A stretch of DNA of 24,089 nucleotides, from the NCBI GenBank assembly GCA_030601715.1, contig JAUWBL010000001.1, positions 1 to 24,089 on the forward strand, written 5' to 3'. Below, piece after piece: positions 19,687 to 23,831 of this stretch. The DNA is from Candidatus Geothermarchaeota archaeon. GTDB taxonomy: Archaea; Thermoproteota; Nitrososphaeria; Geothermarchaeales; JAUWBL01. Both the position numbers and the translations under genes were made by a program. The notes beneath the pieces are model-generated. The model had not been told where the DNA came from, searched no databases, and saw only the letters and a program-made list of their open reading frames with translations. Position 1 is the first letter of the stretch. The number at the start of each line of letters is the position of its first letter.

Positions 19687-20517
19687 CTAGAGCCTCTTGC
19701 GGAAAGCCAGCTGGTACAGTTCGATGGAAGATTCCTTGCAGGAGGCTAGAATATTCCTGTCGTACCCCCGACATATCAGAAACTTTCTGATCCGAATTCC
19801 CCCTAGCGACTCCTGGGAACCGTATCCCCGGGCTATCCTCAGGAGCTGAGCCACGGCCTCTTCCGTGGCGAGCGTCTCTATCTCCACCACCACAGATCGA
19901 TCAGAAGAGTCACGGAGGATCAGGTCCGCCCTCCCAGTTCCCACGTCTACCTCCATGCCCTCCCTCTGCAGTCCCTCTTCCAGGATTGAAGGATCGTCCC
20001 AGAGCAGCTTGGCTATAGGTCTCTCGGCCATCCCGTCGGCCTCCGTGTAGTCCTCAAGTCCCTTATCAGACATCTTCACAAGCGCCTCCTCAACCGACAC
20101 GTATGATGCCCCTAGCCTGTGTGGAAAGACGCGGTGCGGTCTATCGTCCTTGTAGACCAGCAGAACGGGGGTGTTGCTCAGGTTTAGTCTCTTGCCTTTC
20201 GACAGTGGCAACATGTATCCACCGGAGGTCACGATCTTGCCTCTGGTGTGGGGAGGTATTCCCCTAATCTCGTCCCGTAGCCTAAGAGCGTCTTCAGCAG
20301 ATAGCTCATCGAACTCGTTGACCAAGAGTTCAGCTCCTTGGGAGTCCGCCACCGTCTCCGCCTTCGAGATCAGGTCACTGAGCCTTGTCACGTAAGAAGA
20401 CTCCCGGCCGTACAACAGCAGCATCCGAAACGTCAACGACTTGTCGCCACCTTCGCCCTCTCCCTCACTACTGATCCTGTTGGGCTTTGAGATGGTTGTG
20501 GAAGGATGCCCTTTCAT
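19687..20517 (-). CDS. Unknown N-terminal domain fused to a NucS/EndoMS-like PD-(D/E)XK domain
   Basis: ERPIAKLLWDDPSILEEGL...GRADLILRD...VVVEIE...AVAQLLR follows the NucS C-terminal pattern. ATG 20517 overlaps the kinase stop (ATGA). Confidence 0.7.
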   Translation of the reverse strand: MKGHPSTTISKPNRISSEGEGEGGDKSLTFRMLLLYGRESSYVTRLSDLISKAETVADSQGAELLVNEFDELSAEDALRLRDEIRGIPPHTRGKIVTSGGYMLPLSKGKRLNLSNTPVLLVYKDDRPHRVFPHRLGASYVSVEEALVKMSDKGLEDYTEADGMAERPIAKLLWDDPSILEEGLQREGMEVDVGTGRADLILRDSSDRSVVVEIETLATEEAVAQLLRIARGYGSQESLGGIRIRKFLICRGYDRNILASCKESSIELYQLAFRKRL

Positions 20518-21329
20518 GGTTCAAATAGGCTCAGAACCTCCCGATAGTTTCCAGTGCAGGGGTTTCTCTTGTAGGCCCTTAGGAACCCGAACAGCTCTTC
20601 GAACGAGGTTCTCAGGAGAGCTTCCTGGAAGAGTGCCTTGCTCGGAGAGGTGAAAATGAAGTACTGTATCATCGAGGTGAGGTTTGACGGGACACGTCGC
20701 GTGGAGGCTGACTCGAAGTCGATGATCTTTGTCGCGTCGTCTTCGTCGACGTAAACGTGCTTGTGAGGCCGAGAAAGCTGTCCATGATCCAAGCCTATCT
20801 TGTCCAGAGCCGCGCACTGATCCAGTACCGCCCTAGACAGACGCCAGACGGCCTTGGGAGACTCCTCGGACTGCGCCATCGCCTCTAGATGTTGGTGCAT
20901 GGACCGACCCTCCACTAGCTCCAGAATGAGGATGTCTTCGCCGCTTCCCAGGAGTGTTGGACCCACGCCCACCGAATTCGCGTGGCCAAGCATTTCTGCC
21001 TCGTGCTGCACACTTCCTCTGCCGGAGTCGGTTCGAAGGATCTTCACCGCCACGGCTGAGCCAGCTTTGACGCCCATGAGGACTAGACTTGTCGTTCCCT
21101 TCCCGAGAATCTCGAACTTCCCCAACCGGGTTCCTCCCTGAAGCAGGATTCGATCAATCCCCAGCTCAGCCAGTTCCTCGATCCTCCGAGACGTGACCGT
21201 TCTCTCCTGCGAGGGATACGCCAGGAACCGCCCGATGAACGCGGGGTCGAGCGTGTCAACCGTGAAAGCTCTGTCCTCAGCCTCTGCCGAGGGCTTGACT
21301 CCGATCGTGGCAGATTCCCTCTCCGCTCG
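20514..21329 (-). CDS. Archaeal RIO-like Ser/Thr protein kinase family; end given is the limit of the open frame and the start codon is unresolved
   Basis: ILGKG, VAVK, HGQLS and IIDFESAS motifs. The frame stays open upstream of TTG 21125 and encodes FLAYP...RIEELAELGIDRI up to the cca stop. Confidence 0.8.
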   Translation of the reverse strand, partial: RAERESATIGVKPSAEAEDRAFTVDTLDPAFIGRFLAYPSQERTVTSRRIEELAELGIDRILLQGGTRLGKFEILGKGTTSLVLMGVKAGSAVAVKILRTDSGRGSVQHEAEMLGHANSVGVGPTLLGSGEDILILELVEGRSMHQHLEAMAQSEESPKAVWRLSRAVLDQCAALDKIGLDHGQLSRPHKHVYVDEDDATKIIDFESASTRRVPSNLTSMIQYFIFTSPSKALFQEALLRTSFEELFGFLRAYKRNPCTGNYREVLSLFEP

Positions 21330-22739
21330 TTACGGGGCCTCATGAGATTGGTCGGTCCACCAGAACTCCTTTCGCCCGAGAAAATGGGAGATAGAGGGCT
21401 TGACGATCTCGATTCGACGGGCGGCCTCCGTCAGATCTTCTGTCCCCAGCACTCTCGCCGTCTCCGACACCTCTCCTCGGATCCCCCTAGGTATGATCTC
21501 AACATCCTGCAGGACCTTCTCAAGGGCGGTGACGGCGTTGGTGAGTTCTCTTCTCTTCAGGGCTGCCCATCTGCCCTCTCGCGTGATCCAGACGTGGATC
21601 GACTTGGGGAGGTTCTCCTGCAAGAACGAGGTTTCGTGTCTCTCGTCGTAAGGGTAGGGGCCCATGTGAAGATGCTGTTCTGGTATGTCAAGGGACTGGA
21701 GCTCGAATAGGAGAAGCGACGACGACCTGTAATCGCTATAGGTGTCCCACCTCAGAGGGTTGAAGCCGAACTCCCGAAGCCTGGTTTCGAGGTTCCTGGC
21801 GAGCCGTTCCAGTTGTGGGTGAAGGGTGTCTTCTATCAAGGCTCCGTGGTGGAAGAGCATCCCCATTACGCCCTTCCTCTTGGCCAGCGAGGGTCGCAAG
21901 TCCTCTCGTCCTACGGGGCGCTGCTCGAAGAATAGCCTGCTTGGGACGCTGAGAAAAGCGTGTGAGGCCGAGATGAACAAAGAGAAGGAGAGACGCGACA
22001 CTGCTGCGGCTACGTTGCGTCCCTTGTCCACCGGGTCTACAGCTATGAGGGGGTCTTCCTCGAAGAGCTGAAGGGGGATCTCCGGCGACCCTTCAAAGTG
22101 TCCCTCCACATCGATAACCCTGGGTGGTCTCCAATTGGCTCCAGCCTTCAGCAGTCCTAGGAACGATCGGTGGGCTATGATGAGGAGCTCGCAGAGATAT
22201 CCGGAGAATCCACCGATGGCTGCCTCGGCTCCATACACGCCTATGGATTTCAGAAAGCGTTTCAGGAGGCGTATCTGATCCCTTAGCTCGTCATCCAAGT
22301 GTTCCTCCGCGTACTGAACATGATAGAAGGTTCTATCTACGGCGCTCTTCCACTTCGGGGGCCTCGTTCGATAGGCTGGGATCACGCTGATGTTCAAACC
22401 CTCCGCCTTACCTTCTACATAGGGGTGCTCAGCCCACCGTTCCACGACATCGTATCCTTCGAGAACTCGTCTTCCGATTTTGAGGCCTACCCTCTCGAAT
22501 TCCTCCCTTGACAGGGTGGGTGGCAGGAGAACGAATATGTCGACGTCGATTTCGGATGACAGATAGGTACCCTTTCTCACAGATCCCCCTAGGAAAACCT
22601 CGGCTTCTGGCTCGATTTCCCTCGCCACCTTACCAGTCCTTTCCAGAAATCTATCAGCGACAGCCCTAACCTCGAGAACTTTCCTTGGATTAGGCCTGAT
22701 CTCCTCAAGGATGCGCTCTAGGAGGGATTCGACTTTCAA
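21330..22739 (-). CDS. cca: Class I CCA-adding enzyme
   Basis: GSVRKGTYL...DVDIF, AEHPY, SAVDRT, RLLKRFLKSIGVYGAE...GFSGYLCELL and DPVDKGRNVAAA. TTG 22739 gives MKVESLLE, resembling the start of archaeal CCA enzymes. Confidence 0.95.
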   Translation of the reverse strand: MKVESLLERILEEIRPNPRKVLEVRAVADRFLERTGKVAREIEPEAEVFLGGSVRKGTYLSSEIDVDIFVLLPPTLSREEFERVGLKIGRRVLEGYDVVERWAEHPYVEGKAEGLNISVIPAYRTRPPKWKSAVDRTFYHVQYAEEHLDDELRDQIRLLKRFLKSIGVYGAEAAIGGFSGYLCELLIIAHRSFLGLLKAGANWRPPRVIDVEGHFEGSPEIPLQLFEEDPLIAVDPVDKGRNVAAAVSRLSFSLFISASHAFLSVPSRLFFEQRPVGREDLRPSLAKRKGVMGMLFHHGALIEDTLHPQLERLARNLETRLREFGFNPLRWDTYSDYRSSSLLLFELQSLDIPEQHLHMGPYPYDERHETSFLQENLPKSIHVWITREGRWAALKRRELTNAVTALEKVLQDVEIIPRGIRGEVSETARVLGTEDLTEAARRIEIVKPSISHFLGRKEFWWTDQSHEAP

Positions 22740-22746
22740 CTCAATC
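22738..22746 (+). repeat. 9-bp direct repeat AACTCAATC, left copy (covers the cca start region)
   Basis: Identical to 23832-23840. The flanking bases differ on both sides. Confidence 0.9.
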
Positions 22747-23831
22747 AACCCATAATACGCAGTGTGCATAAGCGGCTTTGAGGAAGGCGCACAATACTGG
22801 GCGAAGTGGGACAGCAACAACCCCAATACGGGCGGGCTGGATCGATAGGAGGCTCATTGGGAGTAGTCGCATTCGCTATATCCTACTCGGCACTTGCCTT
22901 ACTTGCTTAGTGAAGATTGTGCGATGAAAATCGGTCTGGTTCAGTACAACCCCGCTTGGGAGGACAAAGAAAGCAACAAAGAGAAGATTGACTCCCTCTC
23001 GGACGATCTGATAAGGCTGGATCTAATCGTTCTTCCGGAGATGACCCTCACAGGGTTCACAATGAGGTCCTCCAAGTTTGCTGAAGACCTCGAGGGACCA
23101 AGCTTCCACTACTTCTCCAGCCTGGCCAAGGACAACTCCGCCCACGTCATCGCGGGAATAATCGAAAAAGCGCACGAGGGCAGCTTCAACACCCTGCTCC
23201 ACATTTCTCCCCAGGGAAGACTGGAAGCGACCTATAGAAAAATCCATCCCTTCTCCTATTCGGGAGAAGACAGACACTACTGCAGAGGAGAAGCAAACGT
23301 AATCACCACGATAGACACCTGGAAAGTGGGTCTGTCGATCTGCTACGACCTCCGCTTCCCAGAACTTTACAGGGAGTACGGCAAAGACAGGGCTCATCTG
23401 ATAGTTAACATCGCCAACTGGCCTGATGCGAGAATAGATCACTGGAGAACCTTGCTGAAGGCCAGAGCAATCGAGAACCAATGCTACGTAGCGGGGGTGA
23501 ACAGGGTCGGCGAAGCCCCAAGCCTGAGCTATAACGGTTTCAGTGGCCTCTACGACCCGATGGGCAAGGAGATCGCCAGCATCAGGAACAAGGAGATCAC
23601 AATCGTAGCGAACATCGACAAGGATTATGTTGATAAAGTCAGACGCAAGTTTCCCTTTCTAGACGATCTCTACCTGATTTGATAATGCTCAACACAAAAT
23701 CCATATCCGTGGCCTAGCCTCACTAGCTGCATCTACCAGACCGTGGCAGCCTCCCCCACACTTACAAAGCTCCGTGTAGCTAGAGATGAGCTCAAGTTCC
23801 TGACAAATAGTCTACTATTCCGCAGACTGTG
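22747..23831. mobile_element. Candidate inserted cassette (1085 bp) carrying a nitrilase-family gene
   Basis: Bounded by 9-bp direct repeats, and excision restores thpR TGA-G-TTG cca. No transposase or terminal inverted repeats seen. Confidence 0.45.
22924..23682 (+). CDS. Nitrilase / carbon-nitrogen hydrolase family, omega-amidase (YafV/Nit2)-like
   Basis: E-K-C triad (VLPEM, YRKIHPF, ICYDLRFPE), ANWP...HW and ARAIENQCYVAGVNRVG. ATG 22924 (MKIGLVQ). Confidence 0.9.
   Translation: MKIGLVQYNPAWEDKESNKEKIDSLSDDLIRLDLIVLPEMTLTGFTMRSSKFAEDLEGPSFHYFSSLAKDNSAHVIAGIIEKAHEGSFNTLLHISPQGRLEATYRKIHPFSYSGEDRHYCRGEANVITTIDTWKVGLSICYDLRFPELYREYGKDRAHLIVNIANWPDARIDHWRTLLKARAIENQCYVAGVNRVGEAPSLSYNGFSGLYDPMGKEIASIRNKEITIVANIDKDYVDKVRRKFPFLDDLYLI

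Follow-up and report, generated by a model that had tools for sequence, protein, structure and literature searches.

The window analyzed here is a 24,089-nucleotide (nt) stretch of a Candidatus Geothermarchaeota metagenome-assembled genome (MAG; contig JAUWBL010000001.1, positions 1 to 24,089). The gene in question lies on its minus strand, directly downstream of cca, which encodes the archaeal CCA-adding enzyme (TIGR03671 cca_archaeal, E 7e-114; Pfam NTP_transf_2, tRNA_NucTransf2, and CAA_C). Past the TAA of cca, the same frame stays open for 68 codons (21329-21126; peptide RAERESATIGVKPSAEAEDRAFTVDTLDPAFIGRFLAYPSQERTVTSRRIEELAELGIDRILLQGGTR) and runs on into a kinase gene. None of these 68 codons in the window is ATG, GTG, or TTG, and the first canonical start in frame is TTG 21125. 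A first-pass annotation made from the sequence had drawn attention to this, and translation of the minus strand over 20514-21332 confirms it; every motif and coordinate cited there proved right. With start-type codons at an in-frame frequency of 6.6%, a 68-codon run without one has a P of about 0.009 at one fixed place, and comparable start-free runs occur inside 171 of the 776 genes of the MAG. Such runs are thus fairly common, and the unusual feature here is that the run covers a conserved N terminus.

We assign the gene, on its sequence and predicted fold, to arkI, a homologue of the archaeal tRNA U47 2′-kinase (COG2112 / AQ578 family). The first-pass annotation had correctly called a kinase but had not recognized it as ArkI. 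The ArkI family profile matches the window protein with an E value of 1.9e-30, and in a phmmer search against the PDB the best solved match is TkArkI (7vnx; E 6.8e-22, residues 60-268); Pfam detects nothing stronger than a weak protein-kinase match. In the alignment with TkArkI, the P-loop GKGTTS is conserved, as are HGQ (for HRD), DFE (for DFG), and YKR at the C terminus; LDHGQL, IIDFES, and LRAYKRN face IDHGQI, LIDFEK, and LRHYKR. The family alignment shows no variation at H182, D204, or F205 and little or none at Y253 and K254. An AlphaFold2 (AF2) model built from 19 sequences (predicted local distance difference test [pLDDT] 90, predicted template modeling score [pTM] 0.87) retrieved 7vnx first in Foldseek (E 7e-10), followed by 8yv5 and 8yv4, Ark1 of G. 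acetivorans. TkArkI is therefore the best match in both sequence and fold, and the kinase motifs and the linkage to cca are common to both. That linkage is widespread: cca lies directly upstream of arkI in the window and at 18 of 19 relatives' loci, the locus L015 beginning inside arkI. ArkI is a recently discovered enzyme that stabilizes tRNA by internal 2′-phosphorylation. It phosphorylates the 2′-OH of tRNA U47 (Ohira et al. 2022, PMC9095486). According to the same study, arkI of S. tokodaii forms an operon with the tRNA nucleotidyltransferase gene (STK_09530/09520), and ArkI of N. viennensis, which belongs to the same class as the window organism, is active (PMC9095486).

The window protein differs from TkArkI in having an extra N-terminal domain of about 40 residues, largely absent in TkArkI, and its gene differs from known ArkI genes in that it has no canonical start codon in this species. 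In the AF2 model, the domain is made of a strand (residues 21-23), two helices (29-36 and 43-55), and a second strand (58-62), with pLDDT rising from 71 to 95; the fold sets in at about residue 21, after a disordered stretch at residues 1-14. The first-pass annotation took LAYP...RIEEL..LG to be the N-terminal domain of this family, and indeed the corresponding LxYP...RLxEL..GV segment is found in 17 of 17 distant homologues aligned and, with few exceptions, in the 150 best family representatives. The family comprises 494 clusters at E < 1e-30, and nearly all members are 240-265 residues long with the N-terminal domain. The idea that homologues might lack the segment and begin near 21125 does not hold, the segment being near-universal. 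Judged by this conservation, the LAYP segment is real and is part of the predicted protein.

Table 1. Features at the cca-arkI junction (window coordinates)
Feature	Position	Strand	Comment
cca, archaeal CCA-adding enzyme	21330..22826	-	longest open reading frame, 498 codons; stop TAA 21332-21330
arkI as proposed	20514..21308	-	264 codons plus stop TGA 20516-20514
spacer, cca stop to proposed start	21309..21329	-	21 nt CGAGCGGAGAGGGAATCTGCC; contains Shine-Dalgarno-like GGAGAGGG at 21324-21317
ACG, proposed arkI initiation codon	21306..21308	-	positional homology; 12/12 haplotypes
ATC, alternative neighboring start	21303..21305	-	ATC in window and L022 only; GTC in the other 10 haplotypes
structured N-terminal domain, residues ~21-68 of the open frame, LAYP...RIEELAELGIDRILL	21126..21269	-	wholly upstream of the first canonical start
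TTG, first canonical in-frame start	21123..21125	-	predicted product 203 amino acids, N terminus M-G-K-F-E-I-L
ATG overlapping the cca end, +1 frame	21341..21343	-	out of frame with arkI
polymorphic codon	21261..21263	-	ACG in 7 haplotypes, ATG in run X12, GCC/GCT in 4 haplotypes
7-bp hairpin CCUCGGC-AGAG-GCUGAGG	21275..21292	-	folding energy -12 kcal/mol, z -2.6

Ten contigs from NCBI, JGI, ENA, and Logan (the window, L022-L027, and L064-L066) span 967 nt that include the end of cca and all of arkI. They are 96-99% identical, with 0 gaps across the 967 nt. Logan contigs of two further DNA runs (X7 and X12) bridge the junction, also without an indel, which brings the total to 12 haplotypes. 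A sequencing or assembly error, one of the explanations offered by the first-pass annotation, is therefore excluded. The cca TAA is in frame with the kinase in all 12 haplotypes, and window positions 21339-21306, ACG 21308 included, are invariant among them. None of the 12 has an ATG, GTG, or TTG upstream of LAYP, apart from an ATG at 21263 in run X12. A scan of genome-collection contigs for close relatives found none, and next to none of the sampled words was present in the RNA runs X20 and X22.

The haplotypes also tell us how the leader evolves. Over all 68 codons, the count of nonsynonymous to synonymous changes is 9:10, with a ratio of nonsynonymous to synonymous polymorphism (pN/pS) of 0.33 (P = 0.016 against neutrality); for the first 22 codons it is 1:3 (pN/pS 0.11, P = 0.052), and the N-terminal domain itself (21126-21269) shows 3 nonsynonymous and 4 synonymous changes. 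The kinase core gives 17:19 (pN/pS 0.29, P = 0.0002). The last 49 codons of cca (21333-21479), which lie beyond the end of the TIGR03671 model, give 11:3 (pN/pS 1.22, not significant). This cca tail evolves neutrally and so serves as an internal control for mutational bias. The leader, then, is as constrained as the core, which argues that it is translated in the kinase frame. Although the counts are small, all lines agree, and on these sequence comparisons the kinase frame is predicted to be read from close to 21308.

Could the 68-codon leader instead be a recent relic, with a truncated ArkI made from TTG 21125 (in some haplotypes, from TTG 21173 or ATG 21146)? Gene-calling software has opted for such a short form in all 11 database entries of the species: 9 begin at TTG 21125 (203 amino acids), and the other two, of 210 and 219 amino acids, begin at new starts a few codons before it. 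Every public annotation thus cuts ArkI down to 203-219 residues and drops its N-terminal domain, since the software requires a canonical start; the three lengths follow from new in-frame starts specific to certain haplotypes. Those new starts are ATG 21146 (L023 and L025) and TTG 21173 (L024), both downstream of LAYP, and ATG 21263 (run X12); ATG 21146 is also listed for X12, on a 132-nt contig separate from the one with ATG 21263. Their appearance, and the fact that 68 stop-free codons are not very improbable at 56% GC, would suit truncation. However, the core and the leader gain start-type codons equally often (3 of 20 and 3 of 14 variable codons, respectively), and we therefore rejected selection for new starts. 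TTG 21125 corresponds to about residue 31 of TkArkI, and the product from there would be without the counterpart of TkArkI residues 1-30, N-lobe elements found even in the short TkArkI (PMC9095486). The leader's pN/pS is close to that of the core next to a neutral cca tail, its codon usage is coding-like, and no haplotype carries an indel here, though the next gene has one of 1 nt about 70 nt in. We consider truncation unlikely.

Where, then, would translation begin? In 18 distant relatives, arkI has its own start, mostly an ATG, TTG, or GTG that precedes the cca stop by 8-32 nt and is in another frame. The two closest relatives (L067 and L068), which we reached via their cca proteins, are more informative. 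At the junction of the sister species (L067; cca 85% identical), the sequence reads CAG TAA TGA GTG GGG AGA GTC AGG CCC TTG, that is, tandem stops TAA-TGA and then GTG, all in one frame (L067:3908-3916). Its ArkI begins M-G-R-V-R-P-L-I-G-A-E-E-R-A-F-A-V-D. The first-pass annotation had suggested comparing the junction with that of a sister genome, and the comparison reveals a separate GTG start and no fusion. An 80%-identical ArkI contig from the sister's MAG (L021) was rejected as a source of this junction, as it begins inside the gene at QGGTKL, and the cca contig was used instead. In the relative whose cca is 60% identical, a TAG is followed by a 14-nt spacer, GGGGAATCAGATCTG, and then GTG, giving M-T-R-R-Q-P-Y-R-N-Q-A-D-R-V-E-V-D...F-L-S-Y-P. 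The GTG starts of the two nearest relatives thus lie 3-14 nt past the cca stop and open with M-x-R-x-x-P. The window has ACG ATC GGA GTC AAG CCC here, or T-I-G-V-K-P-S-A-E-A-E-D-R-A-F-T-V-D. Protein alignment places Met1 of both relatives on ACG 21308; a gap-free count from the YP motif places it one codon later, on ATC 21305. As far as alignment can tell, the near-cognate codon would be the positional homologue of the relatives' GTG, within one codon and the placement of an indel.

The sequence around ACG 21308 is consistent with a start at this site. As the first-pass annotation had noted, GGAGAGGG precedes ACG 21308 by 8 nt and ATC 21305 by 11 nt. Within this Shine-Dalgarno (SD)-like motif, GAGG (21321-21318) is 9 nt before the ACG, and genome-wide the spacing of GAGG or GGAGG to starts peaks at 7-11 nt. 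We found no 16S rRNA, which would carry the anti-SD, in the MAG, and aragorn found no tRNA-Met there. Codon usage changes at about the same place: the 7 codons after the TAA score -0.03, which is noncoding-like, and 21305-21264 scores +0.41, which is coding-like. For reference, genes have a mean of +0.32 and stop-free off-frame windows a mean of -0.18, and the likelihood ratio for the whole tail is about 4.

A start further down, at ACG 21263, would fit the window haplotype in some ways. From this codon, T-V-D-T-L-D-P-A-F-I-G-R-F-L-A-Y-P aligns gap-free with M-K-I-G-F-D-P-A-W-I-E-R-I-L-S-Y-P of the homologue P0011, so that the ACG falls on Met1 of the short homologues P0011 and P0013; the codon is ATG in run X12, and a GAGG lies 11 nt upstream. 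This GAGG, however, sits in the 3′ arm of the hairpin at 21292-21275, and in 4 of 12 haplotypes the codon is GCC or GCT, which would leave them with no start. The starts of the two nearest relatives lie about 15 codons upstream of this position. Moreover, leaving the I/V difference aside, haplotypes show three changes between 21305 and 21264, each of them silent and in the third codon position, a pattern suggestive of translation upstream of 21263. Initiation at ACG 21263 is very improbable in our estimation.

The ATG at 21343 that overlaps the end of cca is real, as originally described; it is one base out of frame, and a -1 ribosomal frameshift would be needed to enter the kinase frame from it. 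An NTG is present at this position in 12 of 12 haplotypes (ATG in the window only, GTG in the other 11), and the arkI genes of most relatives do start 8-32 nt upstream of the cca stop. Against this, chance alone would more often than not put an NTG in one or the other of two frames within 25 nt, and arkI starts past the cca stop in both the sister species and the 60% relative. Inspection by eye, rather than a programmed search, found no slippery heptamer of the form X XXY YYZ from 21343 to 21270. Codon usage in the 21343 frame is negative throughout (-0.29), and the changes at 21288, 21276, and 21264, silent in the kinase frame, would be second-position changes in the other. The frameshift, another of the first-pass options, is thus disfavored, and we regard it as extremely improbable.

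A further possibility raised at the outset was readthrough of the cca TAA, which would yield a CCA-adding enzyme-ArkI fusion of about 770 residues (junction peptide ...SHEAP-X-RAERESATIGVK) as the only source of full-length ArkI. Several observations favor it. The TAA and the shared frame are kept in all 12 haplotypes, the downstream open reading frame (ORF) is in frame in the sister species too, the stop is followed by a C, the cca tail changes as freely as an unconstrained linker would, and cca and arkI form a known operon whose proteins both act on tRNA (PMC9095486). The arrangement resembles programmed stop-codon readthrough in having two coding regions in one frame with a single stop between them, but it differs in lacking a conserved stimulatory structure near the stop, in the sister's tandem stops, and in that no fused homologues were found. 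The tandem TAA-TGA, followed by a separate GTG, argues against a readthrough fusion, as do the separate starts of arkI in the 18 more distant relatives, usually overlapping cca in another frame. No cca-kinase fusion turned up among the best 150 family representatives or in a search for longer proteins, the latter being weak evidence. The genome has no surplus of in-frame TAA junctions (its terminal stops number 379 TAG, 315 TGA, and 82 TAA), and the 7 codons after the TAA look noncoding, though the sample is tiny.

RNA structure gives little help to readthrough. The 101-nt junction region is no more structured than its shuffles (z -0.09). The GAGGG/CCCTC stem that the first-pass annotation placed 8 nt past the stop is absent from the minimum-energy fold. 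The 7-bp hairpin does fold as described there, and it is the only structure that stands out; it lies 37 nt past the stop. In one haplotype, G21276A breaks a pair, and in another, G21288A turns a G-U into an A-U. The hairpin is neither conserved nor well placed. The shared frame has held up as an observation, and the fusion proposed to explain it is very unlikely.

We favor initiation of arkI at ACG 21308, to which we give a probability of roughly 60%. Among the explanations first put forward, a near-cognate start at ACG 21308 or ATC 21305 is the best supported: by positional homology with the GTG starts of the two nearest relatives, by invariance among the haplotypes, by the distance to the SD-like motif, by codon usage that turns coding-like there, and by purifying selection on what follows. 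Several points weigh against it. The SD-like match is only 4 nt long and so is not significant on its own; with about six near-cognate codons in the tail, a match at a suitable distance would turn up by chance for one of them about one-third of the time, and ACG 21263 has its GAGG as well. At the DNA level, the sister species can be aligned in more than one way: an 18-nt indel sits between CGGAG repeats, and the sister's GTG can also be placed on GCG 21326. The polymorphism tests rest on small counts, and some contigs come from the same studies and are not fully independent. ACG is absent from the start codons of NCBI table 11. We know of no documented ACG start in archaea, and a literature search found none. 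Finally, the precedents in this MAG, described below, are CTG starts, and none is ACG.

We propose that ArkI is produced on its own, as a protein of about 264 residues. The two nearest relatives, with their GTG, would have kept the canonical NTG that was ancestral at this site; in the window species it may have changed to ACG and become fixed, with the protein, including its N-terminal domain, remaining under purifying selection. Translation would start at ACG 21308, 21 nt past the cca stop, and ATC 21305 possibly contributes in the window haplotype. The ribosome most likely reaches the ACG by way of the SD-like GAGG 9 nt upstream and not by termination-reinitiation. Coupling of the latter kind operates at overlapping gene pairs (Huber et al. 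2019, PMC6728339; 2023, PMC10666635), and the overlaps of 8-32 nt in most relatives and the 3-nt distance in the sister have this coupling geometry. The proposed start in the window species, in contrast, is 21 nt past the stop, and in H. volcanii and E. coli, such a distance almost abolished coupling (PMC10666635). This makes independent, SD-led initiation more likely in the window species.

Rare starts are known in prokaryotes, such as the AUU of infC, and CTG, ATT, ATC, and ATA are listed as starts in table 11. The case of arkI resembles these in that a conserved N terminus needs a near-cognate codon with an SD-like motif where relatives have a canonical one. It differs in that the candidate, ACG, is mismatched at the middle codon position and is not in table 11. 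ACG does serve as a weak start in eukaryotes and their viruses.

To look at other genes of the same genome, we screened 776 long ORFs (a crude set) of the 1.26-Mb MAG for coding-like leaders without a start-type codon. The clearest case is gcvPB (C109:413-1927, minus strand; L028/L038). Its NCBIfam model matches from residue 5, and its first canonical start is codon 50. Codon 2 is a CTG that shares bases with the gcvPA stop (CTGA), and relatives have GTG, TTG, and ATG starts at the aligned position; on this alignment, gcvPB clearly appears to start at CTG. In feoB (C186:1490-3682, plus strand; L029), the P-loop GNPNTGKST lies inside a 63-codon startless leader. CTG at codon 10 has a GAGGG 8 nt upstream and is within one codon of the relatives' Met1, so feoB, judged by its sequence, probably starts there.

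Two further genes have family models that begin in a startless leader. One is nadE (C17:2600-3430, minus strand), which follows the in-frame TAA of an upstream ORF and has a CTG at codon 4. The other is a hydrogenase maturation protease gene (C180:52-636, plus strand), for which the only candidates are ACG, ATA, and AAG; its ORF is 50 nt from the contig end, and we count it among the weaker cases. The first-pass annotation had taken a CTG start at gar1 as support for near-cognate initiation. This start is ambiguous and the support weak because a GTG lies three codons later; gcvPB is a much better precedent. Perhaps nadE and gar1 also have noncanonical starts. We rejected UppS and a tape-measure protein, which have acceptable canonical starts, and GH57, whose contig C171 opens (1-306) with an inverted, 87%-identical copy of the start of the GH57 gene on that same contig, probably a fold-back assembly artifact. 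In all, at least three to five conserved genes of this MAG are without a canonical start, a warning for the annotation of uncultured archaea.

It is possible, though we would put it at somewhat less than even odds, that ACG is a genuine archaeal initiation codon and part of a relaxed start-codon selection in the Geothermarchaeales lineage. With many haplotypes, a neutral cca tail, and a canonical homologous codon in relatives, arkI offers a well-controlled candidate for noncanonical initiation in an archaeon. Confirmation of the ACG would widen the known set of archaeal start codons and provide a concrete substrate for studying the stringency of aIF1/aIF2-dependent start selection. A fixed weak start on arkI, if true, would set a low level of the tRNA Up47 kinase.

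Some minor observations concern the family and the neighboring genes. In P0097 (480 amino acids), an ArkI-like domain (229-478) is joined to an N-terminal part that weakly matches a Pol-beta-type nucleotidyltransferase; we rejected the protein as a cca-ArkI fusion, that part being unrelated to cca. The thpR-cca junction in the sister species L067 is 1 nt, without an intervening nitrilase gene. The gene after arkI overlaps the arkI stop as ATGA (ATG 20517). About 70 nt into it, at window positions ~20445-20455 on the minus strand, a 1-nt indel (GGTGG versus GGGGGG) distinguishes haplotypes. Gene callers give this gene 276, 260, or 234 amino acids, and its real start is probably further downstream.

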